Virus record (IMG/VR): IMGVR_UViG_2657245091_000008
Length of the DNA: 64,000 nucleotides
Reading direction: 5' to 3' (one strand)
Origin: a virus
Taxonomy: Duplodnaviria > Heunggongvirae > Uroviricota > Caudoviricetes
Part shown: piece by piece, positions 1 through 51,931 of the stretch
How the letters are laid out: every line of letters starts with the position of its first letter
How positions within the stretch are numbered: the stretch's first letter is position 1
Translations under genes and position numbers: made by a program
The notes under the pieces: generated by a model
What the model was told of the DNA's origin: nothing
The model's database searches: none
The model's input: the letters and a program-made list of their open reading frames with translations, nothing else

Positions 1-546
1 ATCAGCCAAAAATGCCTCCATCTCTGCATGTGGGAAGTAGGGCGCTTTGTATTTGCCATACCCCACGTTGAACTCGCCATTTTGGTTGTACCGCGTTACG
101 CCATTAAAACAGTGCCGATTAAGGTACAAAAAGGCGGCAGCATGATGTAGCTGGTCATACTTTCCTCTGTTAAATGCCTCACGCACTTCGAGGTAAGCGT
201 CAGCGTTGTTGTAATTTTGGAAAAAACTATATGACAGCGTGACGAGCGAATGTCCTTCTCGCTGCAATGTCTGATAGAAGTTAATCAGGTCACCGTTAAT
301 ATCATTAAGCAGGTTGTGGCGAAATCCTGCATTTGTAAATACGGAACCGCCACCAACGAATGGTTCTATTAACCGCTTGCCGTGTGGTAGATGCTCAAGC
401 ACTGTAGGCAACTCTGAGAATTTACCGCCTACCCATTTGAAGATCGGGCGCTCATATTCATCCTGAGTCCGAATGGTGCGCATATAGCTAATTTCAGCCA
501 TCGTATCCTGTTTTTCTATGGCTATGCTTGCTATAGATTTACTCAT
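1..546 (-). CDS. Dam-family DNA N6-adenine methyltransferase, truncated by window edge (start 546 or an internal Met)
   Basis: Minus-strand translation from ATG at 546-544 gives KWVGGK, EPFVGGGSVF and LYLNRHCFNGVTRYNQNGEFNV, closely matching E. coli Dam N-terminal motifs; ORF runs off the 5' edge; not in ORF track because incomplete. Confidence 0.8.
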   Translation of the reverse strand, partial: MSKSIASIAIEKQDTMAEISYMRTIRTQDEYERPIFKWVGGKFSELPTVLEHLPHGKRLIEPFVGGGSVFTNAGFRHNLLNDINGDLINFYQTLQREGHSLVTLSYSFFQNYNNADAYLEVREAFNRGKYDQLHHAAAFLYLNRHCFNGVTRYNQNGEFNVGYGKYKAPYFPHAEMEAFLAD

Positions 547-1189
547 AGAGCACCCCCTTATTCGCTTCGAAAACTGCCTTTGCGAATCCATGCGGAGTAG
601 CACTTCGAAAATTAGCCCTTTCAGGTCCAGGTGGCGCGGTATGGATTCTGTTATCTGGCTTGCCTAATGATTCGTCCATTAGGGCATCAGGCATGACAAA
701 GCCTTGCCCGCTCCAGAGGCATGTTTTTTTGGTGTAATTGTCTTCCTTGCAATATGCAGTGAAGTGGTAAGGATGGAAGATGTGATCAGGTTTACGCCAG
801 AATGTCGATATTTGGCTGACCGGGTTTTCAATCATGTACGGGCAACCAATCATCTTTGCAATATCGTAACACTGCCAGACGACCTGCATCGCTTTGAACT
901 GGAAAAACGGATCTTTGTCAGCCTTATGCGCAAACCAGCGCGCACCGGAAACAGCAAGGTCCGTGCACGGCGGAAAACCAGCTAAAAACACAATACGTTG
1001 TAAATTATTTCGGAGAAAAGCATAAACTTCATCACTATCGATAATCGCACTGATACGTGTCAGAACTGCGCCTGATTGCATCAGCTCATCTCTGGTCTCT
1101 GCGTGTTGTGGATCGACGATAACAGCATCTATACCATGCTCCAGCCAGGGGGCGACCATTTTCCCCGTGAAATCACAAAGACTCACCAT
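539..1189 (-). CDS. Putative DNA (cytosine-5)-methyltransferase-like protein, short form
   Basis: Motifs GFPPCTDLAVSG (like C5-MTase motif IV GFPCQ.FS.AG) and YMIENP (like ENV); likely start is ATG at 1189 (track ORF extends to 1318 across rdgC 3' end); stop overlaps dam start (ATGAGTAAA). Confidence 0.45.
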   Translation of the reverse strand: MVSLCDFTGKMVAPWLEHGIDAVIVDPQHAETRDELMQSGAVLTRISAIIDSDEVYAFLRNNLQRIVFLAGFPPCTDLAVSGARWFAHKADKDPFFQFKAMQVVWQCYDIAKMIGCPYMIENPVSQISTFWRKPDHIFHPYHFTAYCKEDNYTKKTCLWSGQGFVMPDALMDESLGKPDNRIHTAPPGPERANFRSATPHGFAKAVFEANKGVLYE

Positions 1190-1202
1190 CAGAGGTCTAT
1201 TG

Positions 1203-2108
1203 TTAACGTTCTGCTTCACCACCAACGGCCTCCACCAGCGAAGTGAACATCGCGGATAATTCAGCAGTAAACAGGATAAAGTCAGCGTCAAATCGTTGCG
1301 CAACATCCTCTCGATCAATATCGTCGTTCTGGTCGTACAATTCGTCGCTGAACGACAAAGCCTTGATACTCATATCGTCATTCAGTCTGAAAAATGCACG
1401 GTCTTGCCAGTTAACCGCAACTGTGGTTGCAACCTTACCAGCTTCTATATGACTCATGATCTCGTCGGATAGCAGGTCCACTTTTTTGCAGCGGACCGCG
1501 CCGCCATCATCAAGCAATGCTTTTAAGGTCGCTTCCTCACCGGCACGGAAACCGTTCGGGAAGCCATTTTTAATCCAGCCAGTGATGGTCAGTTCTAATG
1601 GGTCTTTCGGAGAGAAGGGGACAACGGGCAAGCTGCCAAGCGATTTCCGTAACAAAGCCAGCTGATCCTCTGCTTTTTTAGCACTGCTGGCCTCGACAAA
1701 AACCAGATGATTGCTTCGGTCTATCAGGATTTTAGCGACTGATTTTCTCGTGAAAGCACGAGGAAGCAGAGAGTGAAGCACTTCATCCTTCAGCGAATCT
1801 TTTTCAGTCTTCTTCAGCTTTCTGTCTTGCTCTTCTTCAAGTGTCAGGATTTTTTTCTGTAACTCTTCTTTGAGCACTTGAGAGGGTAGGATTTTTTCCT
1901 CTCGTTTATGCTGTATCAGAAGAAAACCTTGGTATTCATGGGTGAGGTTGTCGCCAAGAACGGGGGTCCAACCAGCTTTAGCCATATCCTGAGAACCGCA
2001 TGGGGTAAACACAAACTTGCTAAGGGCTGCATTTACTTCTGCAGTATCCCAGCTAACTTCGCGTGAAAGACGATAGATGAAGATATTTTTGAAAGCGACT
2101 GATCTCAT
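1203..2108 (-). CDS. rdgC: Recombination-associated protein RdgC
   Basis: Full-length similarity to E. coli RdgC ([55 protein letters not shown]). Confidence 0.9.
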
Positions 2109-2115
2109 GTCTCAC

Positions 2116-2159
2116 CATTTGTGTTAGAAAATACATATTAATTATCTAACACAAATGGG
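2116..2159. promoter_or_regulatory. Operator-like motif pair (14-bp inverted repeats CCATTTGTGTTAGA / TCTAACACAAATGG) upstream of rdgC
   Basis: Two inverted copies of the recurrent TGTTAGAAAA-type motif. Confidence 0.45.
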
Positions 2160-2167
2160 TGCATTTT

Positions 2168-2821
2168 CTATCCTTTCTTGAAATCGAAGTTGCTAGCAGT
2201 GGCCTGAAAGGTTCCTCCTGCCTTGAAAGCTATGTCTCCGTTAGCGGTGACAGCAATATTTTCCCCTTTAACATTGATGTTGTTGGCTGATTTGACGTTA
2301 ACACTCCCTCCTGCATTCACGATTACATCAGCCGGACCAATGATATATATCTGCCCGGACTCATTCATGCCAATCCTTGAGCCTGCTGCCGTATTGGCAA
2401 TTTCATAGCCGCCACCAGCAGTTCGTACTTCAAGAATATTGTTGCGGTGAATAACGAAGTCTTTCGTTGCTGAGATTTGGGGGCGGGGAGGTGCTCCATC
2501 TACTTCCGGCGGCGTCCAGCCGTTGCCTTTGCCAGATGCTTCTGGTGCAACGTTTGGAATTCCTCCCGGTGCATCCTGAGCGGCACCAACTATCATTGGG
2601 CGTCTGGTGTCTATTCGACCGTTAACATCTAAATAAGGAAACTCTACCCAGACCAGGTCACCTTTGACTGTGGGTACAAAAGCGTTCCCGATGGGTAACT
2701 GGTATTCCGCCCAGGGTAGATCGTCATCAGGAACGCCATTCCAGTCAGGTAAAACACGGACTTGAGCACGCATAAGCCCTGCCGGGTGCACAGTTCCAAC
2801 AATTTGCGCTCTACGCTTCAT
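2168..2821 (-). CDS. Phage baseplate central spike protein (Mu gp45 / P2 gpV-like)
   Basis: N-terminal OB-fold-like pattern (LPWAEYQLPIG...KGDLVWVEFPYLD) followed by Gly/Asn-rich beta-helix-like repeats; last gene of a four-gene operon with overlapping stops. Confidence 0.45.
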   Translation of the reverse strand: MKRRAQIVGTVHPAGLMRAQVRVLPDWNGVPDDDLPWAEYQLPIGNAFVPTVKGDLVWVEFPYLDVNGRIDTRRPMIVGAAQDAPGGIPNVAPEASGKGNGWTPPEVDGAPPRPQISATKDFVIHRNNILEVRTAGGGYEIANTAAGSRIGMNESGQIYIIGPADVIVNAGGSVNVKSANNINVKGENIAVTANGDIAFKAGGTFQATASNFDFKKG

Positions 2822-3798
2822 TTGTTCGGCACTCCCAATATCATTCGTGTTGTGTAGCCTACGCGGTCCTCAAAGTGCGCAACATTTTTTACTATCAGCT
2901 TACGGGGCATTGATTCATCAATGCGGTTTTCCTGGTCATAGCGGTATACGATAATCTCTATTACCATCCCCGGTTTTATATCAGGATTGCCTGCGACTTC
3001 TATATCCATTTTGGGGACGAGAGACAGCTGCATATTGCGAAGAGTTTCCATATCAGAGTCGGATATATAACGCACTGGGAGTGAGCTATCGCCATATTCG
3101 ACGTAGCCATCGGTCATGGAATACCCAACAAAACGATATTGATTCTTTGCTGTTGTCGCATGTTCCTGTTGGAGTAGGCGCATTTTGGACAAAGTGTATT
3201 CTGCTTTAGGGTTATTCCCCTCGTAGGTAAATGATGGCGTTTGCTTCATCAGATCAGCCAGGGTGTAAAAGTTAAATTCCCCCCGGCATACCCAACATAA
3301 TGCACCTTTGTCTCGCGCTATCTCCGAAAGCATTTTTGACGGTTTGTCACCGGCATTCAGATGATATGTAACTGCGCGTTTTAGCACGCTGCTGGTAATT
3401 TTAAGCTTGCCGGAATATGCCTTGAATATAGCGTCTGGTGTTTTGTTGGTATGTAAATTTGTGCGCGGGGAGGGGATCTTAAACCTGCGCACGTCTTCAC
3501 TGACAGCAATAACGGTAACAACATCACCAGCCAGCATTGCAGACGTAACAAAGAAATCTGTTTTAAAAGTGCCTGCATTACCGTTTGGATCGCCCATTTC
3601 AGCCACCAGCGATGCACCGTATTTGGCTTTCCAGTCATCAATTACGGTGCCGGTAGCGTCATGAATTTCCAGTTTTAGCAAAGGGGCTTTGAGGCTGGTT
3701 TTTTCTACATATACTGCGGTAAAAATCCAGTCTCGTGGCACTTTGTTATCGTTAATGAGCACTGACTGTAGAAAATATTGTTGTAACTCCTGGGCCAC
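2818..3798 (-). CDS. Putative baseplate hub-like protein (by position upstream of spike)
   Basis: 326-aa ORF translationally coupled to the spike gene; hub-then-spike order as in Mu 44-45; no motif recognised. Confidence 0.3.
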   Translation of the reverse strand: MAQELQQYFLQSVLINDNKVPRDWIFTAVYVEKTSLKAPLLKLEIHDATGTVIDDWKAKYGASLVAEMGDPNGNAGTFKTDFFVTSAMLAGDVVTVIAVSEDVRRFKIPSPRTNLHTNKTPDAIFKAYSGKLKITSSVLKRAVTYHLNAGDKPSKMLSEIARDKGALCWVCRGEFNFYTLADLMKQTPSFTYEGNNPKAEYTLSKMRLLQQEHATTAKNQYRFVGYSMTDGYVEYGDSSLPVRYISDSDMETLRNMQLSLVPKMDIEVAGNPDIKPGMVIEIIVYRYDQENRIDESMPRKLIVKNVAHFEDRVGYTTRMILGVPNK

Positions 3799-3801
3799 TT
3801 A

Positions 3802-4569
3802 TCACCCCATAGATATCGAGGTTTCGGTAATAATACGTTTTGCGTCCAACTCCCATGCTGTGATCACGTCTGCAATCACACTTATCGGCGCTTGTGTGGC
3901 ATAAATACGCTCTTCTCCAATTGGTGCTGAAACATCCGTAAAGCCGACTTCTTTGGCATCCTGTATCGAGCAAATCAACGGGACCGGGACACGAACAAGG
4001 TGAGTGGTGGCTTCAAATTGTGTACCTGTCATCAGGCGAAGCCGTGCGCCCAGTGAATTACACATCAGACTCATGGTCGCTTTATCAGTTGCCATTAACG
4101 TAACGTCATACGTCAGAATGGCCTGGGTGTATTCCAGTTCTGCTAAAGGCATTCCGGTATCCGGTTCGCAAAAACTGGCTACTTTTTTGCGGTCAATCTG
4201 CTGATCATCGTTGATATAATTGATATCCATAGTGCGTGAGATATTGACCAGGGGGAGAGCATCCCGGTTAATGTTCTGGTTTTCAGGTTTTCTCCCTTGC
4301 CCGGCATTTGCGCGACGAACTGCTTTAAGAAACTCGATCGCATTGTCGAAACGGGCCACATAGACACGCTCTGCTGGTGGACGATTCAGGAATGACGCAA
4401 AGCGTTTTTCTTCCGGCGCGGGGGCCACCAGTAAGATATCAGAAAAAATGTTGCTGATTAGCGTCGCAAACGCGTTATCCACGCTTTCAAAGCCCGTGGT
4501 CTGGAATTTTCCTGTGCGTGAGGTTTGCCATTCACCTGTTCGCGCCAGGAGGGTTTTATTTGAAGTCAT
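3802..4569 (-). CDS. Hypothetical protein (tail/baseplate module?)
   Basis: 255-aa ORF in same operon, stop/start overlap with neighbours. Confidence 0.3.
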   Translation of the reverse strand: MTSNKTLLARTGEWQTSRTGKFQTTGFESVDNAFATLISNIFSDILLVAPAPEEKRFASFLNRPPAERVYVARFDNAIEFLKAVRRANAGQGRKPENQNINRDALPLVNISRTMDINYINDDQQIDRKKVASFCEPDTGMPLAELEYTQAILTYDVTLMATDKATMSLMCNSLGARLRLMTGTQFEATTHLVRVPVPLICSIQDAKEVGFTDVSAPIGEERIYATQAPISVIADVITAWELDAKRIITETSISMG

Positions 4570-5369
4570 TCGATCACTCCGTTTTGAGTCGTATCAAAAT
4601 TCCTGGCAGGTATGCAGTAGTAAAGCGAACCAACATGCTGTGTGCCGTAGCTAAAAATACGGTGCACGTACCACCAGCGGCGGGCTACGCCGTTTACCAT
4701 CTCTTCATTCCATTCAAGAATTGATCCGACGGGGACGTTATTTGCTGCAATACGCAGAATCAGAACATCATCGGTTAAGCCATCCTGCTCACCGTCTGCG
4801 TCAATTGCATGGAAAGAGTCACGCCCGTCCGGGTTATCCAGCACATAAACGATTTCAGGTTCCTGGTAAGTCAGTTCGCGCTGGTTGTTATCCAGTTCAG
4901 TGAATGACTCTTCTCCTGTTTCGTCGCTGACTACCCCATATGTGCCAACATCTGGTCGATATAAGAGAGCCTGAAACGCGTCTGGGCTGGATTCAATAAT
5001 CAGCATCCAGTCTGCGCGGATTTGGTCGTTAAAGGCTTTATGCCCGTTATAGCGTGCTTTTAACTGTGGAGTCGGTTCTCTGCCAGCCAGGGAAGATGGA
5101 AGTATGGCTATATCTGATTCGCCAGCATCCGGAGTAAGGCCACCGTTGCTATCAGCAAAATTATCATGGCTATCAGCTTTGGCGGCGGGTTGCTCTTCCA
5201 GAATGCTGAATGAATCCGAACCTGTATTGCCATGTTCCGGCGCGCCTCCTGCATTCGCTTCAATCGGCGCTGGCGTTTCTCTCTGCGTGCTGTCATGTTC
5301 TGACTCCTTACTTGCCAGGTTTGCATCGTCAGCAAACCATTCGTCAAAACGGCCCATAAGCATCCTCAA
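4566..5369 (-). CDS. Hypothetical acidic protein (tail/baseplate module?)
   Basis: 267-aa ORF, first gene of operon; Asp/Glu-rich N-terminal half. Confidence 0.3.
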   Translation of the reverse strand: MRMLMGRFDEWFADDANLASKESEHDSTQRETPAPIEANAGGAPEHGNTGSDSFSILEEQPAAKADSHDNFADSNGGLTPDAGESDIAILPSSLAGREPTPQLKARYNGHKAFNDQIRADWMLIIESSPDAFQALLYRPDVGTYGVVSDETGEESFTELDNNQRELTYQEPEIVYVLDNPDGRDSFHAIDADGEQDGLTDDVLILRIAANNVPVGSILEWNEEMVNGVARRWWYVHRIFSYGTQHVGSLYYCIPARNFDTTQNGVIE

Positions 5370-39175: not shown

Positions 39176-39251
39176 TGGTGGCCCCTACCGGATTTGAACC
39201 GGTGACCGTGCGATTATGAGTCGCCTGCTCTAACCACTGAGCTAAAGGGCC
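39176..39251 (-). tRNA. tRNA-Ile2 (anticodon CAU, ileX-like; elongator Met not excluded)
   Basis: GGCCCTTTAGCTCAGTGGTTAGAGCAGGCGACTCATAATCGCACGGTCACCGGTTCAAATCCGGTAGGGGCCACCA; canonical cloverleaf, near-identical anticodon arm to E. coli ileX. Confidence 0.8.
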
Positions 39252-39388
39252 AGATTACTGTTAATTCCGCTTACGCTTTTTGCCAGAACCGCGTAAGGCT
39301 TTTGCCGCTTGCTCGACCCCATATGCAACCACCAGCAAAAATAAAAATGTCCAACCAGGGTTCTTATCGGCAAACGCCCAAAAATTCA

Positions 39389-39712
39389 TCACTTACAGCC
39401 ACCTTGCATTTCCTCGGATAATTCATTGATTTTAGTGCTCAATAAGTAATCAAAGTAAAGATAAAACACAAAAGTAACGATAGTGCTTAAAGTGTCTGAA
39501 ATTGCGTATTTCAGCTCAGGAAGCATGACAAAGCAGACAAATAGCGGAAGAAATAACTGCACTATGCACAGGCTCTCCTTCCACAACCATCTATATCTGA
39601 AGTCTGACAACAAAAACTCCATTGCTTGAAACTTTATTAGATTGCGGTGCCTGGTGCCTCCAGGTGACGTTAACCAGTTAACAATTAACGCCGGGATGTT
39701 TGACTTAACCAC
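39389..39712 (-). CDS. Hypothetical small membrane protein
   Basis: 107-aa AT-rich ORF between tRNA genes, hydrophobic. Confidence 0.3.
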   Translation of the reverse strand: MVKSNIPALIVNWLTSPGGTRHRNLIKFQAMEFLLSDFRYRWLWKESLCIVQLFLPLFVCFVMLPELKYAISDTLSTIVTFVFYLYFDYLLSTKINELSEEMQGGCK

Positions 39713-39872
39713 TAAGGAGGATTGTTTTAACTGTTCCGCGTGCGCTTAGCCGCATTCACCGCAATGGTAAGAGCACTTGGCTGGCTGGGCGGCGATGACG
39801 CCTGTACGCATTTGGTGATCCGGTTCTGCTTCCGGCATTCGCTTAATTAGCCAAATACTCTTAACGTTGCGC

Positions 39873-39959
39873 TGGCGGAGAGTAATGGAATCGAACCATC
39901 ATCGCTTGCGCAATGGGACGGTTTTCAAGACCGCTTGAGCACCATGCTCCCTACTCTCC
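39873..39959 (-). tRNA. tRNA-Ser-like (anticodon UGA), type II with atypical D-arm
   Basis: Acceptor GGAGAGT/ACTCTCC+GCCA, anticodon arm CGGTCTTGAAAACCG as in E. coli tRNA-Ser(UGA), long variable arm, T-loop GGTTCGATTCC; D-arm non-canonical. Confidence 0.55.
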
Positions 39960-40323
39960 CGTTATTGTGGCGACCGGTGCTGATCTCCGGCTTGCGGTTA
40001 TTTCAGACTCTCACGGGCGTTTAATTGCCCCGCCGAACAGCTCTTTTCCGCAATAGCTGCAATGTCTTTCGCGCATCAGCCTGCGCATTCACCACAATGT
40101 TGAGAACACTGGTTGTCACGCTGCAACGCAACATTTATTCGTAGATTGGGATATGACCCCGTTACGCCAGTGTTCTCAACGTTGTAGTGCCGGTTACGGT
40201 TCCGGCCAGGCCTCTTCCTCAACGGGGTGTTCTCCATACGGACTACCGTTTATTGGTCGTTCCTGCGGTTTATGTTGTGAAGCCAGATGCTTATCTTCTG
40301 GTTGCTTCAAAGAGCTGCACTTC

Positions 40324-40412
40324 CTCACAACGGTAAGGGTACTTCGTAGGGATTCGAACCCTCTGCCAAGCTCGGCGATCTCCGACGTCGCAAAATACCC
40401 TTACCTGTTGTG
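40324..40412 (-). pseudogene. tRNA-like remnant (acceptor, D-arm and T-arm but no anticodon arm)
   Basis: T-loop signature AGGGTTCGAATCCCT and pairing acceptor-like stem, only about 65 nt core, enclosed by a 16-bp extended stem. Confidence 0.3.
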
Positions 40413-40413
40413 C

Positions 40414-40489
40414 TGGTGCCGATTAACGGACTCGAACCGCTGACCATTCGCTTACAAAGCGACTGCTCTACCAACTGAGCTAAATCGGC
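40414..40489 (-). tRNA. tRNA-Thr (anticodon UGU)
   Basis: GCCGATTTAGCTCAGTTGGTAGAGCAGTCGCTTTGTAAGCGAATGGTCAGCGGTTCGAGTCCGTTAATCGGCACCA; canonical cloverleaf. Confidence 0.8.
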
Positions 40490-40493
40490 AATT

Positions 40494-40580
40494 TGGTGGG
40501 GAGTGATGGAGTCGAACCACCCGAGTCGCAATGACAGTAGATTTACAGTCTACCCCGCTACCCCTACGGACTAACTCCCC
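40494..40580 (-). tRNA. tRNA-Tyr-like (anticodon GUA), type II with atypical D-arm
   Basis: Acceptor GGGGAGT/ACTCCCC+ACCA, anticodon arm GTAGACTGTAAATCTAC, long variable arm, T-loop GGTTCGACTCC. Confidence 0.55.
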
Positions 40581-40585
40581 TAAAG

Positions 40586-40662
40586 TGGCGATGGTGGGTG
40601 GATTCGAACCACCGACCGACAGCTTAGAAGGCTGCTGCTCTATCCTACTGAGCTACACCATC
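40586..40662 (-). tRNA. tRNA-Arg (anticodon UCU)
   Basis: GATGGTGTAGCTCAGTAGGATAGAGCAGCAGCCTTCTAAGCTGTCGGTCGGTGGTTCGAATCCACCCACCATCGCCA; perfect acceptor, D and T stems. Confidence 0.8.
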
Positions 40663-45094: not shown

Positions 45095-48000
45095 TTAGGC
45101 CGCATCGGCGATTATTTTACGCAGTTCATCTACCGAGTAACGCGTAGATACCATCCATGCAGGACGGTCAAAGTTCACATCAGCAACCGGGTTTGCTTCA
45201 AAATTCCAGAAACGCCCGCCAATCTTCTTAATCGCGTCTTTGGCGTTCCGTATTGTCGAGGAACCTGGTTGGTCGGCAATGAGATAAACCGCGCCAACGT
45301 CCTCGCTGACGCTCCACCAGCGCCCGCGAACACGCGCCTTAGCGCGAATCGGCTTATCATTAACCACAATGATATAGTCATCATTCGCCGCTTCATCAGC
45401 TCTGGCTTCAGCCACTGCCGCCTGCTCTTCTCTTTTGCTTTCAGCCTGCTCAAGCCTTTCCGCGATCTCTGATTCAGTGGCCCCGCCGTTTTTCAGCGAT
45501 ACATAGTCCTGCCACGTTGCCGATTTGAGCGCATCCGGCAACTCATTCACATAGTCGCCGTCTTTCAACTCACGGGCGCGACGGGTAGCCATTTCTACCA
45601 GGCGATTAACAGAAACAGCATCAGCAAAATCGTCCTTACTAATGTATTTTTCATCAAATGCATTGATGACAGCCCCCACCTTAATCCACTGTGCTGCCGG
45701 TGATTCCAGGGGGTTATCAGCCTGAACAATGGCTAGTTTTGCTCCATCTACCCCATTATTCGCCAGCTGTTCCAATGCCGCCCATCCATCTGCATCACTG
45801 AGTGATTTATATTGCTCAAACAATGCATCGCGCCAGGCCACCAGCGCAGAACGTGTTTTTTCGATCTTCGTCTTAATTTTCGCTATCTTGACCTGATTAA
45901 ACATCCGTTCAATATCATCGATATTGCTAAAGGCTTTCATCCTGCCCTGGAATAAACGGTATGCCAGCACGGTCCTCCAGAATGATTCCAGACCTTCTCC
46001 GGACGGTTTGCGGAACAAGCTAAGAATATCTTCAGAAGTGACTTTATTAAGCGAACGACCTGACAGACCACGCCCAGCCATCCAGTTTTCGAACTCCTGG
46101 GCAACATCATCCATCGTTGCCTGTGCGCCCCATGCCTGCATTCCCTGGATGTAATCATACCCATACAATGCCTGGAGGAATCCCTCGCCGTCCACGATAT
46201 TCAGCGGGTTATCACTGGCTTGTATTTTTGCCACTTCACGCTTCAGCGCCTCGTCGTTGCCATCAGGATATATCCATCGCTCAGGTGCTATATCCGATGC
46301 TCGCCCGATTTTTTGGCCTATCACGCCATCATAGGTCGATGACAGTGCGATCTGACCATCATCTGTGCGATAAGCCCAGTATTTAATAGCTGACCCACCG
46401 CCCCATGCATTACCAGGTTTACCAGCAATAACATTCATTACCCCATTACGAATAGCATCATAGAACTGATCGCGAGTAAGTATTGTTGATAGCTGGTGGC
46501 ACTGAACACCACGCGCAGCCGTTGCGCGCGATTCAGCAACCCCCTCTTCAAAAGTTACCGCTTCAATCACAGAGTCAAACGGCAATGTAACGATTGACCC
46601 CGGTGATCGAGCGTAACGACTTGCTCTATCCAGCCAGGCGATACGGCAGATGTATTGTGCTTTTTCACCGTCAATTTTTTCCACCCGGACAATCGCTGTT
46701 GTTTCGCGATCATCAATGACTGCACGGTAATAACTACCTTTATGCAACAGGATATTCTTGTCAGTGCGCATATATTCCTGTGGGTTCTGAATAACATCGA
46801 TACTGATATCCAGCACACCAGACTTAATAGCGCGCTCCACATCACCACGAGAGCGTTTCATTATGGTATCCGCGTCTTTTGCCCTGGTGATCGCAAACCG
46901 CAGCACCCGCGCACGTTTTCTGTAGCTACTCAACTGCTCAAGCGCGTATTTTTGCCCATTCCTGTTCGTACCCGCTTTTATCAGGTCGTCAAGATTGCGC
47001 TGGTAATACTCTATCTGTTCCATCGCGCTTTTCAGTTCTGTCTCCATCATGCCGATATCTTTTCCGGCGGCGTTTGCCGCTTTCAGGTAGATATCGAGAG
47101 CATTGTTGGCCTCGCGCTGTGCTTTCAGTTTCAGACGTTCTTCACGCTCTTGCGCCTGGCGAGCCATGATTGCGCGGCGTTCTTCCGGGTTTGCCGCCAG
47201 CATAATGGCGCGTTCATCAGCATCATCCGCATCACCATTGGCGATCTCTGACATGTCGGAGGTCATCACCATCTTGATCCAGTCTTTCTTACGTTTCAGC
47301 GTATCCAGACGGAAGTCGTCGAATGTGCCTTTGCCACAATAGTAGTGAACATTGACCTTTTCTTGCGGTGAACCTACGCGCGCACCGCGCCCATTTCGTT
47401 GGTCGATACTGGCTGGCGTCCAGGGCAGTGTCAGGTGGTGGATATCGGTTGTCCCGATGTGCAGGTTAATACCTACTTCAGCCTTCTTGTTACAGATTAT
47501 GATGCGCGTGCGACCTTCGTTATAGTCGGCGGCAATACCTTCCATGCCCTCAAGGCCAGCATCATTTTTAGCGGAGAGATAATCCTCATATTGGGCAAGT
47601 TTGCTGTAGTAGGTTTCCCATGCCCCTTCTTTGTATTCACCGTTTTTGTTTGGAGTAGGTTCGGTCGGCTTATTCACCTTCTTCAGCTTGATGCCGCCAG
47701 CCTGGCTAACTGTCGTTGCATTGATAATGCCAATCTCCTGCTCCGGCATTTGCAGTGCACTGGCGATAATACGGCGCAGCTTCTGGTGCTGGGCTTTTTC
47801 ATCAATAAAGACGATCTGCTTACCGTTCTTCAGACCTTCACGAAGATTTTCGATCAGCGCGGCATACTTCGGCGGGATGGGGTGCGATACCTGCTGCATA
47901 TCAATACCGGCAGCCGCAATGGCCTTAAGTATTTCAGCTTCCAGTTCAATGCTGGCACGTATTTCAACATGCGTCGGATGTTCACTAAAAGCGGTCTTCA

Positions 48001-51000
48001 CTACCTTGCTGGTACGCGTACTGACCAGCCCGCCAGCGCCGTCTTCCTCGGCCTCATCAACATCATCTGCCACTTTACCGCCAGCTACTTTTGGCAAGGC
48101 ATCAGCAATAGCTTTTACCTGGTCTGCAAGCTCAACGGGGAACTGGAATGTAATCGCACTGGCATACAGATCCGGGTCTATAGCAACCTTGTCCATGTCA
48201 CGGATGATGGAGAAGATGAAATCATCCGGTTTGTCGTTAGTGATATGCCCGTTTTCATCGACTGTCAGCTCATCATTGCGACTTAACTCCTGAGCACGCT
48301 TACGAAGCTCTTCATAAGCAGTCTCCTGCTCCCCTGTCATCGGGATCTGCAAGGTGTTCTCAATGATGTCGGGAATTTTAACCGTTGCTCCGACATCTGC
48401 AGCAGTCTTCAGAGTGGTCCAACGATGGAAAATACCACGCAGGCCGTCAAGGTTCTGGAAGCCCACCAGCCCCTGCTTCTCTTCCACTTCCCCGGAAATT
48501 TTCTGGACCTGAACTGTGGCTGTTTTGCCAAACACACGAACGAAATCATCAGGCGTAATGATGCCCATGCGCATCCACTCTTCCTGCGGAATGACAGTAG
48601 ACAGCATGTTGAAGGCATCAATCGGACTGTTCACCAGCGGAGTTGCCGTCAGCATGACTACACCACGCCCGTTGTTGCGTTTCATCATGTACGCAGCTTT
48701 TACAGCCATGTCGCGGGCCATCTTGGATACTGCCGGGTTAGGCAAATATGCCAGTTGTCCCGCTTCACGCCCGGCATTAAAGGAGTTGCGGTAGTTATGC
48801 CCCTCGTCGGCAATCACGCTATCGAAGTTCATATCCTCAAAGTACGGGATATTCTGCTTCTTCGTTGTACCGGTATTCGCGGCCTGATCCTTAATCTTGT
48901 TCTTCTTCTGCGCATCACGGTGTTTACCGGACGCCAGGTCAAGACGCCCCATTTCCACAGCATTAAAGACAGCTTGCTGTGAGTTCTCCTCGATGGTTTT
49001 TTCTCGTAGCGGGATAGACGCGAATTGTTCTTTTGTCATGATGACCGTTCGCCAATTTGACGACGGGATCATGTTCATGCGCTGAACGATAACGGCGCTG
49101 GCGGACTCTTTCACAACATTTCTGGTAAGAGGCTGCCCGTTACTGTCGAGGCGTGGTTCGCCATTTTCATCAAGCACCGGCGCGGTCAGAATATTTCCGC
49201 TGTCATCACGAACTTCATCCAAACCGATAAACATCATATTGGCGAAGGCATCAGCACTGTAGAAACTCTGTGCCTCGTGATACCAGTTCTGATAAACCGC
49301 CTTCGGAACAACAATACACGTGCGTTTAGTGCGACCTGTTTCGAAGTTATACGCCTCAAGCGCAAGCGCGGTCGTGGTTTTACCCAGCCCGGTACCAAAT
49401 CCCATGATGCCGCGCCCATCTTCTGACAAGCGCCGAACTTCTTCATTCTGATAAGTCAGAGGAATGCGCTTTCCACTAATCCCTTCCAGGCCAAGCGGTG
49501 CGTCAGAATGCGTGAACGGAATGAAACCATTGAATGCGTCGTTATACTCGCGGGCTATCTGATCAGCCTGCGGGTGAGTGCGTAACCAGTCGTTAAAGCT
49601 AACTTCCAGTTGAGCAATTTTATCCAGGTACTCGTTAGCGTTCTGCCCACGCGGTTTAACACCGTTCAGGTAGTTTTCTAACTGGTTCAGGAAGCCGTCT
49701 TTATTGTTGGCCTTCTTGAACTCATTCCCGTTTTTGCCGTTTACGGTTCGTAGCTGATAGCCGGTAAATACACCGTCCTTACCTTCGTAATCGTCCGGAG
49801 ATACCAGAATGCCATCGACGACCTTCAGATCAGGTTCAGTGTACTTAAACTCGTCATAGCCCTGCTCTGCCAGGAACTCTTTTATCAAGCGGCGATCCAG
49901 CCAGCGGGCATTCAGATTAACGGTGACTTTATTTAGTGGCGTGAAAATACGTTTCTCTTCGATTTTCGCCAACTGACGCTCAAAGTTGGCTTTCTGCTCA
50001 CCTGTTGACGCATCACGCCAGCTCATCAGCAAAGCTGTTTTGGTTGCAATATCGCCGCTGGTGGCGCGGTCCATCGGCAGCAGGCAGCCATACCCATCAA
50101 TAGCGATATCATCAAATTTCGCCAGGTATTCAAGGGCCGCGTCGTCGTCCTCTGGCAGTTCACCAGCAAACGCCTCACGAAAGTCTCCCAGCGTTATAGG
50201 ATTAAGGGCTACATCACTGAAAAGATGTGCTATCACTTGTTCAGGACGTGTAAAGTCAATACCGGCAGCACCATCCGTTACATCAAGTCGCCCTGCCAGA
50301 AGGTCAGAAGTGGAACCATCCTGTTTCACATTGCCAGTGAACGTCATCCAGTTTTTAGCGCCAGCTTCAGCAAGCCCATTCAGCTTAATGGCGTGCGGTG
50401 GCCCATACTTCGCAACTTCTGCTGCCGCCAGGCGGGATGCATCTGCCAGTTTGTCATCAACGTTCACACCCAGGTTACGCAAATCAAGTGCCTTGTTGAT
50501 CAACTGACCTATCAGCGCACCGCGCATAACGCGCTCCCTGTCTTTTTCTCGCTGCTTGCCAGCAAAGCGAATCATTGCTGCCACTTCATCACTGACAACC
50601 GATGGATAGTCGGACGCGATCGCCGATATCTGGTCCCATGACAAAGCCAGAATCCCGTTTGTTGACTGGAACGCGATCTGCAGATCGCCAAACGTCGAAA
50701 CACCATATCGACTTACATCAAGCGCGGAGGATTTGGTTGTCGTGTCCTTAACCCATTTCAGACCATCAAACTCATGCCAGATACCGCCTACAAGGCGTTT
50801 ATCGCCCACTTTCGCGCCCTGCCATGCCTGAGTAGTTACGCCGAGCAAATCCCAATTGATGCGACTATCAAAGCGACGAGATAGCGCGGTTTTCATCGAC
50901 TCATTGGATACACGACCGTCTTTTTTCACCACCAGGGTATTGCGGAAGCTGGTACGTTCCATGTCGCCGTAAACAAATCGCTTCCCTTCGGTTGTAAACC

Positions 51001-51931
51001 ATTTTCCTTTGAGGAAGGTATCCCAAAGGACGTTTGCCGATTTGAGTGTTGAATCATCCGTGTCGGGGATCATCTCCAGGAAGGTTTCCGGGTGTTTACG
51101 CAATACCCATACGTCCACCACGGTATCTGTACCGGATTCGCTGAACGTACCAGAAGGCATACGATGTGCGCCCAAAAATTCCGCTTTACGGCTGACTTTA
51201 TCGCGCAATTTTTTATATTTCGCACCATCGGTCATGCCATTCGGCACCACCAATACGATAAGCCCACCAGGCTTAACCTTGTCGATCGTGCGCAGCACAA
51301 AGTAATTGCCAACGTTCTTCTCGTTTGCATATGCCGGATCAAGCCCGGCGACACCGGAACGCCCTTCACCAAACGGTACGTTACCAACAGCGTGATCATA
51401 CATTGCGTCTTTCGCCGCCAGCGCCTCAAACGCCCCGATATTCACATCGTCTTCCGGGTGCAAAAGCTGGTTTATTCGACCGGAAATCGGAGACAGTTCG
51501 GCGCTGGTCATTATCATGCCCTGCCGTTTTGTCTCCTGGAAAATACCTGTGCCCGCTGATGGTTCCAGTACGTGCCCGCCATCAATACCGTAGTCAGCAA
51601 ACAGATCCCATATACCTTCAGCCATAAACTGTGGCGTGTAGTATTCGTATTGGCTGCCCTCACCATCTGTCAGGCCGCCTTCACCGGTATACCCGGCAAG
51701 AATCTGACGTTGTTCGTCAGTTAATTTCGCCCCATCGAAGCCGGGCGGAAGGGAATTAAGAAGATTTACTGCGGCATTATTTGCTGCCCGGCGTGTTTTC
51801 TGAATACTGACGCCATCGGCTTTCCTGACGCCAAAGGTCGCAACAGCACGTAATTTATGCAACCGACTAACAATTTCAATCAGTTCGCCTAAGCTGGAGG
51901 CTTCACTGATTGAATGAAGTAGTTTGTCCAA
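45095..51931 (-). CDS. darB: DarB-like giant antirestriction protein (N6-adenine methyltransferase plus DExH helicase domains)
   Basis: 2278 aa; MTase motif I LEPSAGTGIF and motif IV NVPFG; helicase Walker A GFGTGLGKTT and VIADEGHNYRN; size matches P1 DarB (about 2255 aa). Confidence 0.8.
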   Translation of the reverse strand: MDKLLHSISEASSLGELIEIVSRLHKLRAVATFGVRKADGVSIQKTRRAANNAAVNLLNSLPPGFDGAKLTDEQRQILAGYTGEGGLTDGEGSQYEYYTPQFMAEGIWDLFADYGIDGGHVLEPSAGTGIFQETKRQGMIMTSAELSPISGRINQLLHPEDDVNIGAFEALAAKDAMYDHAVGNVPFGEGRSGVAGLDPAYANEKNVGNYFVLRTIDKVKPGGLIVLVVPNGMTDGAKYKKLRDKVSRKAEFLGAHRMPSGTFSESGTDTVVDVWVLRKHPETFLEMIPDTDDSTLKSANVLWDTFLKGKWFTTEGKRFVYGDMERTSFRNTLVVKKDGRVSNESMKTALSRRFDSRINWDLLGVTTQAWQGAKVGDKRLVGGIWHEFDGLKWVKDTTTKSSALDVSRYGVSTFGDLQIAFQSTNGILALSWDQISAIASDYPSVVSDEVAAMIRFAGKQREKDRERVMRGALIGQLINKALDLRNLGVNVDDKLADASRLAAAEVAKYGPPHAIKLNGLAEAGAKNWMTFTGNVKQDGSTSDLLAGRLDVTDGAAGIDFTRPEQVIAHLFSDVALNPITLGDFREAFAGELPEDDDAALEYLAKFDDIAIDGYGCLLPMDRATSGDIATKTALLMSWRDASTGEQKANFERQLAKIEEKRIFTPLNKVTVNLNARWLDRRLIKEFLAEQGYDEFKYTEPDLKVVDGILVSPDDYEGKDGVFTGYQLRTVNGKNGNEFKKANNKDGFLNQLENYLNGVKPRGQNANEYLDKIAQLEVSFNDWLRTHPQADQIAREYNDAFNGFIPFTHSDAPLGLEGISGKRIPLTYQNEEVRRLSEDGRGIMGFGTGLGKTTTALALEAYNFETGRTKRTCIVVPKAVYQNWYHEAQSFYSADAFANMMFIGLDEVRDDSGNILTAPVLDENGEPRLDSNGQPLTRNVVKESASAVIVQRMNMIPSSNWRTVIMTKEQFASIPLREKTIEENSQQAVFNAVEMGRLDLASGKHRDAQKKNKIKDQAANTGTTKKQNIPYFEDMNFDSVIADEGHNYRNSFNAGREAGQLAYLPNPAVSKMARDMAVKAAYMMKRNNGRGVVMLTATPLVNSPIDAFNMLSTVIPQEEWMRMGIITPDDFVRVFGKTATVQVQKISGEVEEKQGLVGFQNLDGLRGIFHRWTTLKTAADVGATVKIPDIIENTLQIPMTGEQETAYEELRKRAQELSRNDELTVDENGHITNDKPDDFIFSIIRDMDKVAIDPDLYASAITFQFPVELADQVKAIADALPKVAGGKVADDVDEAEEDGAGGLVSTRTSKVVKTAFSEHPTHVEIRASIELEAEILKAIAAAGIDMQQVSHPIPPKYAALIENLREGLKNGKQIVFIDEKAQHQKLRRIIASALQMPEQEIGIINATTVSQAGGIKLKKVNKPTEPTPNKNGEYKEGAWETYYSKLAQYEDYLSAKNDAGLEGMEGIAADYNEGRTRIIICNKKAEVGINLHIGTTDIHHLTLPWTPASIDQRNGRGARVGSPQEKVNVHYYCGKGTFDDFRLDTLKRKKDWIKMVMTSDMSEIANGDADDADERAIMLAANPEERRAIMARQAQEREERLKLKAQREANNALDIYLKAANAAGKDIGMMETELKSAMEQIEYYQRNLDDLIKAGTNRNGQKYALEQLSSYRKRARVLRFAITRAKDADTIMKRSRGDVERAIKSGVLDISIDVIQNPQEYMRTDKNILLHKGSYYRAVIDDRETTAIVRVEKIDGEKAQYICRIAWLDRASRYARSPGSIVTLPFDSVIEAVTFEEGVAESRATAARGVQCHQLSTILTRDQFYDAIRNGVMNVIAGKPGNAWGGGSAIKYWAYRTDDGQIALSSTYDGVIGQKIGRASDIAPERWIYPDGNDEALKREVAKIQASDNPLNIVDGEGFLQALYGYDYIQGMQAWGAQATMDDVAQEFENWMAGRGLSGRSLNKVTSEDILSLFRKPSGEGLESFWRTVLAYRLFQGRMKAFSNIDDIERMFNQVKIAKIKTKIEKTRSALVAWRDALFEQYKSLSDADGWAALEQLANNGVDGAKLAIVQADNPLESPAAQWIKVGAVINAFDEKYISKDDFADAVSVNRLVEMATRRARELKDGDYVNELPDALKSATWQDYVSLKNGGATESEIAERLEQAESKREEQAAVAEARADEAANDDYIIVVNDKPIRAKARVRGRWWSVSEDVGAVYLIADQPGSSTIRNAKDAIKKIGGRFWNFEANPVADVNFDRPAWMVSTRYSVDELRKIIADAA

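Follow-up and report, generated by a model that had tools for sequence, protein, structure and literature searches.

In phage P1, a cytosine-C5 and a Dam-type DNA methyltransferase activity are fused in one protein, Dmt, as an earlier note on this DNA had stated; we found both PF00145 and PF02086 in its single open reading frame of 754 amino acids. An orthologous cassette is described in phage D6 (orf64 and orf63, MF356679), with its genes in the order rdgC-dcm-dam. The D6 labels read 'putative DNA-cytosine methylase' and, for orf63, 'site-specific DNA-adenine methylase', with the further remark that the Dam protein is 'similar to C-terminal half of P1 dmt only'. The D6 genome annotation has both methyltransferase genes, so the arrangement reported below is already known. 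Experimental work exists on a cytosine methyltransferase of phage K42, which is near-identical to that of phage KarlJaspers (Bas06). K42 Dcm produced high levels of 5-methylcytosine (5mC) on msDNA in vivo, as measured by LC-MS, and a C82A/E128A/K175A/K176A mutant did not; the enzyme triggers retron Ec86, and its expression was reported to be toxic (bioRxiv 10.1101/2023.08.16.553469, also cited as Cell Rep 2024, 43:114857). Its motif, CCWGG, was assumed from the host Dcm, with support only from msDNA mutants in a dcm+ host (bioRxiv 10.1101/2023.08.16.553469).

The DNA that we analysed, here called the window, is a 64,000-nucleotide stretch of IMG/VR virus record IMGVR_UViG_2657245091_000008. 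It is a D6-like phage-plasmid, 99.9% identical to E. coli plasmid CP058021 and 89.6% identical to phage D6 at the nucleotide level. The locus under study is the rdgC-dcm-dam cassette of this D6-like plasmid-prophage, in its ordinary arrangement and with all features on the minus strand. The same two-gene dcm/dam layout occurs in ~97 plasmids, and all of these (~97 of ~97) matched as at least two pieces, never as one open reading frame. Gene order and the overlap between dcm and dam are also kept in a D6-like relative of only 63–69% identity, and the succession of hrdC or rdgC followed by a methyltransferase is common to P1, D6 and a distant contig (L015). Relative to D6, the window is mosaic: a patch at ~700–1750 departs from it (dS 0.57–0.78), with near-identical flanks. 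The short cytosine methyltransferase-like protein is 91% identical to its D6 counterpart, and the Dam fragment is nearly identical (dS 0.05). With a dN/dS of 0.084 against D6, at a dS of 0.57, dcm is by this sequence measure under strong purifying selection.

The first gene of the cassette is rdgC (1203–2108, minus strand), a homologue of P1 hrdC that matches PF04381 at E = 4.8e-102; its stop codon (1205–1203) overlaps the start region of dcm. The second, dcm, occupies 539–1219 on the minus strand, reading 226 codons from a GTG at 1219 to a TAA at 541–539. Alternative starts are a GTG at 1222 (227 amino acids) and an ATG at 1189, which gives a 217-amino-acid product and was chosen both by PGAP in CP058021 and in the earlier note. 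That ATG is not conserved: D6 has GTT at this place, and a more distant relative has GTG. The GTG at 1219, by comparison, is present in D6, where it is the annotated start; a GGAGG Shine–Dalgarno sequence lies 5' of GTG 1222/1219 (1229–1233, minus strand, within the 3' end of rdgC) and is kept in D6, and the N-terminal 'N-x-R-P-L' residues are conserved among dcm homologues. On these grounds translation probably starts at GTG 1219, which would make the ATG 1189 model nine codons too short. The earlier description of a short open reading frame with GFPPC and an ENV-like motif (here ENP) thus stands, with an adjustment to its proposed extent of 539–1189 and 217 amino acids.

Downstream, dcm and dam overlap by eight nucleotides, ATGAGTAA (539–546, minus strand; sequence read directly), in a junction in which the string ATGAGTAAA spans the dcm TAA at 541–539 and the dam ATG at 546–544. 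The two open reading frames are in different frames, bearing out the earlier claim of two separate, overlapping genes. The junction is identical between the window and D6, and the overlap measures 19 nucleotides in a more distant D6-like contig. Within the end of dcm, six nucleotides upstream of the dam ATG, lies AAGGGGG (553–559, minus strand), a putative Shine–Dalgarno sequence. Because dam starts eight nucleotides before the dcm stop and has this Shine–Dalgarno-like run of its own, the two genes are probably translationally coupled, and the geometry likewise suggests that they are co-transcribed with rdgC.

The third gene belongs to the Dam family of N6-adenine DNA methyltransferases, as the earlier note had proposed. 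Its 5' part, 182 codons, fills positions 1–546 of the minus strand; the rest lies beyond the window's left edge. This 182-amino-acid fragment matches PF02086 (E = 5e-36; 125.2 bits, cut-off 22) and the TIGR00571 'dam' model (156.5 bits, cut-off 114.85). The complete protein has 301 amino acids in near-identical plasmids, and the DPPY motif falls beyond the left window end, where the 301-amino-acid CP058021 orthologue has FCDPPYEP; the earlier statement that the full gene extends leftward therefore holds. We predict that its product methylates adenine in GATC.

The short dcm product is a member of phrog_757 'DNA methyltransferase', which it matched at E = 8.9e-78 over residues 2–214. This is a very large family, with 1,589 phage records encoding proteins of ~210–250 amino acids. 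We counted more than 7,755 family proteins (about 215–250 amino acids) and 1,614 clusters at 50% identity, with homologues mostly 205–260 amino acids long. Standard resources were less informative. The short protein gave no PF00145 match in Pfam even at E values up to 1 and no match in NCBIfam, and searches of PDB sequences by phmmer and hmmsearch, using the single protein and two family profiles, returned nothing significant (best DNMT2, E = 0.32). In profile searches, the Pfam domain for C5-methyltransferases was thus unmatched and that for Dam-type enzymes, PF02086, was found in Dam; the cytosine methyltransferase fold was seen in the structural model. The AlphaFold (AF2) model is one compact domain (pLDDT 86.8) whose best structural matches are DNMT3B/3A and other C5-methyltransferases, and the catalytic elements of motif IV (PC) and motif VI (ENV) follow in order along this fold.

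Individual elements of the domain fit a catalytic assignment. We propose a single Rossmann-type domain in which LCDxTG would serve as motif I and an acidic residue in DPQH would bind the ribose of SAM, followed by a putative catalytic Cys in FPPC, the Glu of ENP, the YTKKTCLW strand and a C-terminal RSATPxGFAxAV helix. The motif IV-like GFPPC lies at 965–979 (minus strand), with the putative catalytic Cys codon at 967–965; this Cys aligns with C82 of K42/KarlJaspers Dcm and did not vary in two sets of homologues, 52 close and 75 diverse ones. The motif VI-like ENP, equivalent to ENV, lies at 821–829 (minus strand; Glu codon 829–827). Its Glu is the counterpart of E128 in K42 Dcm; none of the 75 diverse homologues departs from Glu or Pro, and at least 90% keep Asn. 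At 713–736 (minus strand), YTKKTCLW takes the place of motif VIII; its two lysines correspond to K175 and K176 of K42 Dcm, and K165, T167 and W170 of the strand are invariant in the same 75 homologues. DNMT3A/3B and the PF00145 enzymes M.HhaI and M.HaeIII share this fold and the order of its elements: motif I loop, acidic ribose binder, PC Cys, ENx Glu and C-terminal helix. The window protein differs from canonical C5 enzymes in three motifs: PCQ is replaced by FPPCT, ENV by ENP and the motif VIII RxR by KK. Even the smallest classical bacterial C5 enzymes exceed it by ~100 residues, and no significant sequence or profile similarity links it to any of these enzymes or to DNMT3A/3B.

The comparison with K42 and KarlJaspers ties this family to a studied enzyme. 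The KarlJaspers 'Dcm-like' protein (bas06_0055), itself a phrog_757 match (6.2e-86), is 37% identical to the window protein along its full length (BLASTP E = 5e-43; window residues 9–221 against 3–234). The two are of the same size class (236 versus 226 amino acids), and models of both resemble DNMT3A/3B. All four residues mutated in K42 Dcm (C82, E128, K175 and K176) are kept in the window protein, and none of the 75 diverse homologues lacks the Cys, the Glu or the first Lys. KarlJaspers/K42 Dcm differs in carrying 14 extra residues ahead of the YxKKTCLW strand and another loop behind it, and also in genomic setting: the Drexlerviridae Dcm-like gene is an early gene that stands alone, close to a helicase and with no dam adjoining, whereas the window has dam. 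Activity has been demonstrated for the K42 enzyme, and the window protein is known from its sequence and model. Gene structure, homology, fold and conservation were established in our analysis, and 5mC formation only for the homologue, in the published study; for the window protein, we infer 5mC activity, target sequence and biological role from sequence. In aggregate, the fold, the motifs and the characterised homologue back the earlier view of the short protein as C5-methyltransferase-like.

That note had also raised the idea of a non-catalytic partner, namely an inactive C5-methyltransferase-like subunit that would regulate or target Dam in the manner of DNMT3L. The tiny target-recognition region and the overlap with dam would suit such a role, as would structural neighbours of the DNMT3 type, enzymes that act in complexes. 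Across thousands of homologues, however, there is little or no variation at the catalytic Cys, the catalytic Glu or the acidic residues that bind SAM, the K42 homologue is active and depends on those residues, and family members at other inspected loci have no Dam neighbour. With Cys and Glu invariant and a 37%-identical homologue close to the 5mC-making K42 enzyme, we regard a purely non-catalytic protein as highly improbable, and favour an active methyltransferase.

The target-recognition region of this predicted enzyme is unusual in size. No sizeable variable domain separates motifs VIII and IX; the YTKKTCLW strand and the RSATP helix are linked by only ~30 residues, which show strong conservation and not variability, and which would occupy the place of a target-recognition domain. 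The earlier observation that no such domain is obvious was correct in that the region is tiny, but judged across homologous sequences this is a trait of the whole phrog_757 family and not peculiar to this locus. Literature searches on phrog_757 and, more generally, on orphan C5 methyltransferases or target-recognition domains gave nothing relevant. A minimal target-recognition region is shared by DNMT3 and the window protein.

Such a region invites the thought that the enzyme is active on another substrate or in another chemistry: near-non-specific cytosine methylation, methylation of single-stranded or hairpin DNA, m5C in RNA, or the transfer of a different chemical group. The ~30 conserved residues argue against diverse specificities within the family, the sole demonstrated substrate of a homologue is the retron msDNA stem-loop, and the reported toxicity of the K42 enzyme would agree with such activity. 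Against this, the LC-MS product of the K42 enzyme was 5-methylcytosine, and the neighbours here are rdgC and dam, with no genes for Cx-SAM synthesis or hypermodification adjoining. DNMT3 enzymes, moreover, read a short motif despite a very small target-recognition region. We therefore hold these alternatives to be unlikely, and prefer a stand-alone, SAM-dependent cytosine-C5 methyltransferase that acts on DNA and belongs to the compact 'Dcm-like' family of phages.

How this protein relates to P1 Dmt was a further point of the earlier note, in whose view the locus looked like a split of the P1 fusion. Under such gene fission the two genes would be the separated halves of a P1-type Dmt, the short protein being its N-terminal C5 domain minus the target-recognition domain. 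The genomic slot is the same, after hrdC/rdgC and before Dam, as is the predicted activity pair. Window Dam is also 66% identical (E = 2e-81) to P1 Dmt residues 465–635 in the C-terminal half, and over its first ~30 residues it aligns with the linker between the two P1 domains. The C5 modules tell a different story: that of P1 is a canonical PF00145 domain of ~460 amino acids, whereas the window has a 226-amino-acid module of an unrelated-looking family without PF00145. Because neither BLASTP (E > 1) nor hhalign (E = 0.24–0.35) matched the short protein significantly to the N-terminal half of P1 Dmt (residues 1–466), we rejected the split. In addition, phrog_757 is an independent gene, without an adjoining dam, at every other phage or prophage locus that we inspected among the 1,589 phage records carrying it. 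Fission accordingly has a very small probability in our assessment. By sequence comparison, the locus is better described as an in-situ replacement of the C5 module by a non-orthologous, very distantly related one, next to a Dam module that we take to be orthologous to that of P1.

Compact Dcm and Dam might nevertheless form a physical two-subunit enzyme in which Dam helps to position Dcm, itself nearly devoid of a target-recognition domain, for example at or near GATC. If so, P1, by fusing a canonical C5 domain to Dam, and D6-like elements, by coupling translation of a compact Dcm to that of Dam, would have reached the same composite enzyme independently. The overlap is kept in two diverged D6-like lineages, and in one metagenomic protein, P0121, a compact Dcm of 66% identity is joined in frame to a Dam of the D12 class, which we treat as a hint only. 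That fusion is known from just one 2-kb contig, where its neighbours differ, phrog_757 stands alone at the other inspected loci and the K42 enzyme is active alone, which together leave a physical complex doubtful. Another apparent fusion, P0251 (532 amino acids), was set aside; it joins a Mu gp48-like part to the family's C-terminal third only and is probably chimeric or misassembled.

Taken as a whole, we consider it likely that the locus is an rdgC-dcm-dam cassette with a compact C5 methyltransferase and Dam, whose probable role is self-modification. Together, dcm and dam would supply the activity pair that P1 fuses in Dmt, and would probably modify the phage or plasmid's own DNA, giving protection from restriction and supporting Dam-dependent functions as in P1. 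The novelty is small, given the existing D6 annotation and near-identical copies on ~100 sequenced Enterobacteriaceae plasmids. The gain is in annotation: a gene that RefSeq/PGAP lists as a 'hypothetical protein', and probably truncates at its start, can now be named a compact Dcm-like C5-cytosine methyltransferase and tied to an experimentally studied homologue. Two questions follow, namely which sequence is methylated by phrog_757, a family so widespread and nearly without a target-recognition domain, and whether carriage or induction of D6-like prophages marks host DNA with 5mC and so triggers retron Ec86-type defences.

Site counts in the window showed no avoidance of GATC or CCWGG. GATC occurs 232 times (248 expected from mononucleotide frequencies) and CCWGG 181 times (107 expected on the same basis), counts that are too crude for inferring specificity. 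Upstream of rdgC, an intergenic 18-nucleotide inverted repeat (2115–2132/2141–2158, in the region 2115–2170, minus strand) overlaps a sigma-70-like promoter match at 2170–2141. We found no further copies within the window that would mark it as a repressor operator. In P1, Pdmt/Op68 lies upstream of uhr-hrdC-dmt; by analogy, the repeat here is a candidate promoter/operator of the cassette, or may instead be the terminator of the upstream tail operon.

Three genes lie on the minus strand at the left end of the window, running right to left as rdgC (2108-1203, stop 1205-1203; PF04381, E = 4.8e-102), a short ORF (dcm) with a TAA stop at 541-539, and a dam ORF whose ATG is at 546-544 and which stays open past the left window end. 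The short ORF and dam share 8 nt (ATGAGTAA), and a Shine-Dalgarno-like AAGGGGG (559-553) sits 6 nt upstream of the dam ATG. Within the short ORF, GFPPC lies at 979-965 and ENP at 829-821. The 182 codons of dam in the window matched PF02086 (D12 N6-adenine MTase; 5e-36) and TIGR00571 'dam' (156.5 bits against a cut-off of 114.85); full-length Dam in plasmid CP058021 has 301 aa and a DPPY motif. With the overlap, the Dam profile matches and both motifs in place, the earlier note's observation of a short C5-like ORF overlapping a Dam start, with GFPPC and ENV-like motifs, is therefore confirmed, as is its Dam assignment of the downstream gene. We regard a cassette of a compact Dcm-like C5-MTase plus Dam as a highly probable explanation of this locus. 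Our analysis established the gene structure, membership of a compact Dcm-like family, a C5-MTase fold, the conserved catalytic Cys and Glu, and the Dam neighbour.

The start of the short gene needed revision. ATG 1189, giving 217 aa, was chosen in the earlier note and by PGAP in a 99.9%-identical plasmid, but this codon is not conserved, being GTT in phage D6 and GTG in a more distant relative. GTG 1219 is kept in D6, where its authors picked it as the start, and GGAGG precedes it (1233-1229, minus strand). Homologues conserve N-x-R-P-L residues upstream of the first beta-strand, and an 82%-identical homologue has a Met start at the position equivalent to 1219. Because of these features, the gene most likely spans 1219-539 (226 aa) and would overlap the end of rdgC. 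Residue numbers below are counted from GTG 1222 (227 aa), as in the alignments. In CP058021 (3539-4189), PGAP-style annotation lists a 'hypothetical protein' with the ATG 1189-equivalent start (window 1187-1222). The practical benefit here lies in an improved name and start codon for this gene, which is hypothetical in RefSeq.

Profile scans of the short protein returned no Pfam or NCBIfam match, and its sequence had no significant match among PDB sequences. Against PHROGs, it matched PHROG 757 ('DNA methyltransferase', 8.9e-78). By tblastn, the phrog_757 family occurs in 1,589 of 50,697 phage records, including phages of Escherichia, Klebsiella, Salmonella, Vibrio, Campylobacter and Flavobacterium, cyanophages and pelagiphages. 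A word-indexed protein search recovered more than 7,755 family proteins, nearly all of 215-250 aa and all lacking a Pfam domain; an exhaustive HMMER scan gave 1,614 clusters at 50% identity. Across 75 diverse members, C86 (FPPC), E132 and P134 (ENP), P151, K165, T167 and W170 (YTKKTCLW) and G212 are invariant, and at least 90% of members share D17, D37, P84, N133, R206, S207, T209 and P210.

An AlphaFold2 model built with 52 homologues was confident (pLDDT 86.8, pTM 0.86), with confidence dropping only at the loop that follows the PC motif and at residues ~190-210. DNMT3B and DNMT3A catalytic domains filled the top 15 places in a Foldseek search of the PDB (E = 2.5e-5 to 6e-4, probability 1.0), and the best BFVD matches were members of this family that carry a DNA-cytosine methylase annotation, with canonical viral C5-MTases next. 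Searches with family profiles were not significant against PDB sequences or against the N-terminal half of P1 Dmt; in the alignments from these non-significant searches, the stretches from motif I to PPC and from PPC to ENP ran in register with DNMT2 and P1 Dmt. The short protein is thus an extremely divergent and minimal representative of the C5-MTase fold class. As a separate observation, the compact Dcm-like fold forms one domain of two BFVD proteins from uncultured Caudovirales, A0A6J5NPY6 (1126 aa) and A0A6J5SE15 (1397 aa) (Foldseek E = 6e-10 and 6e-9, 28-30% identity), one annotated 'Helicase/UvrB, N-terminal'.

A study of retron Ec86 provides an experimentally studied homologue (bioRxiv 10.1101/2023.08.16.553469; elsewhere cited as Cell Rep 2024 43:114857). 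All Ec86 escape mutants of Drexlerviridae phage K42, which is 95.4% identical to KarlJaspers (Bas06), had a disrupted 711-bp 'dcm'. Expression of K42 Dcm led to high 5mC on retron msDNA by LC-MS, and a C82A/E128A/K175A/K176A mutant, its residues picked by superposing an AlphaFold model on DNMT3A, gave no high 5mC on msDNA (bioRxiv 10.1101/2023.08.16.553469). The CCWGG target is less secure, having been assumed from the host Dcm, with msDNA mutations in a dcm+ host as its sole support (bioRxiv 10.1101/2023.08.16.553469). KarlJaspers bas06_0055 (711 bp, 'Dcm-like C5 cytosine methyltransferase') matched phrog_757 (6.2e-86) and aligned with the short protein over its full length (37% identity, E = 5e-43); K42 C82, E128 and K175/K176 align with C86, E132 and K165/K166. 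The family therefore contains a member with demonstrated C5-methylating activity, whose catalytic apparatus the short protein retains; 5mC formation is shown for the homologue only and is predicted for the short protein. The earlier suggestion of a non-catalytic partner, which we now consider very improbable, runs against both the invariance of the catalytic residues and the activity of the homologue. An active enzyme with an unusual substrate or chemistry (for example methylation that is relaxed or structure-specific, or use of a non-methyl donor) is unlikely but keeps some probability, because where classical C5-MTases have a variable target-recognition domain the short protein has ~30 well-conserved residues, a replacement that is short and uniform across the family.

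P1 does fuse the two activities, as the earlier note stated: its 754-aa Dmt comprises an N-terminal PF00145 and a C-terminal PF02086 domain, and dmt directly follows hrdC, the rdgC homologue. The Dam of the window is 66% identical to Dmt residues 465-635, linker region included, whereas the short protein has no similarity to residues 1-466. Outside the D6-like lineage, the family was a stand-alone gene at the loci inspected: in Drexlerviridae with the early genes, close to a helicase, as gp42 in phiKO2, in a Klebsiella myovirus of 141 kb, in Cronobacter lambdoid prophages (between ninB and ninE/F/G), and in a Pseudomonas prophage. We therefore rejected a split of a P1-type Dmt, a reading that the missing N-terminal homology leaves with hardly any probability; two different C5 modules instead occupy the same slot beside an orthologous Dam.

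Dcm and Dam may, with low probability, form a complex in D6-like elements; P1 and D6 would then have converged on the same composite enzyme. Hints of it are the conserved dcm/dam overlap and a metagenomic 563-aa in-frame Dcm-Dam fusion, P0121, encoded by a single ORF (218-1909 of a Logan SRR32529081 contig, L011). It joins phrog_757 (residues 1-261) to a complete D12 Dam (PF02086, 303-546), and its Dcm part is 66% identical to the short protein, with ~30 aa inserted into the loop that follows the YTK.TCLW strand. Its source is a single 2-kb contig whose neighbouring sequences are unlike rdgC.

Over bases 1-2200, identity is 89.6% to Escherichia phage D6 and 97-99.9% to many ~90-kb non-mobilizable plasmids of E. 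coli, Salmonella and Shigella, which are D6-like plasmid-prophages. In D6 all three genes are already annotated, as orf65 (RdgC family, 'similar to P1 hrdC'), orf64 ('putative DNA-cytosine methylase') and orf63 ('site-specific DNA-adenine methylase; similar to C-term half of P1 dmt only'). Existing annotation thus already records both the arrangement and how it relates to P1. The triad recurs in an 85-kb contig with a Dcm only 63-69% identical and a 19-nt dcm/dam overlap, and ~97 plasmids carry both modules, separate in every case; the triad is stable inside the D6-like lineage.

Against D6, dN/dS was 0.084 for the short gene (dS 0.57) and 0.078 for rdgC (dS 0.78), and dS was only 0.05 for the Dam fragment. 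Judged by its sequence, the short gene is clearly a functional coding sequence. Divergence is concentrated at ~700-1750 (D6 3700-4750; 8-32 differences per 100 nt), with 0-5 per 100 nt in the flanks, including dam and the rdgC 5' end. This looks like a recombination patch spanning most of dcm and the 3' two-thirds of rdgC, its left edge falling inside dcm. Neither CCWGG (181 observed, ~107 expected) nor GATC (232, ~248) is avoided across the window, by a crude mononucleotide expectation.

We propose that rdgC, dcm and dam would be co-transcribed, with dam translation coupled to dcm, and that Dcm and Dam would modify DNA of the element itself, which would shield it from restriction and serve phage functions that depend on Dam. 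Upstream of rdgC, a 59-nt gap holds an 18-nt inverted repeat (2115-2132/2141-2158, 94% complementary, 8-nt spacer), its arm sequence recurring nowhere else in the window, and an overlapping sigma-70-like promoter match (TAGAAA-18-GATAAT, 2170..2141, minus strand). P1 has a similar layout, in which Pdmt with a C1 operator (Op68) lies upstream of uhr-hrdC-dmt. The repeat region at 2115-2170 may serve rdgC-dcm-dam as an operator/promoter like Pdmt/Op68, or may instead terminate the baseplate operon that lies upstream.

Elsewhere, a 2278-aa ORF (45095-51931, minus strand) resembles P1 DarB-type antirestriction proteins and matches N6_Mtase PF02384 (residues 152-282) and SNF2/ResIII/Helicase_C; counting this PF02384 match, the predicted DNA-methyltransferase modules of the element number at least three. 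A five-tRNA cluster (Met-CAT, Ser-TGA, Thr-TGT, Tyr-GTA, Arg-TCT) lies at 39176-40662 (minus strand), and D6 and related plasmids carry a gene for glutaminyl-tRNA synthetase just left of dam, outside the window.
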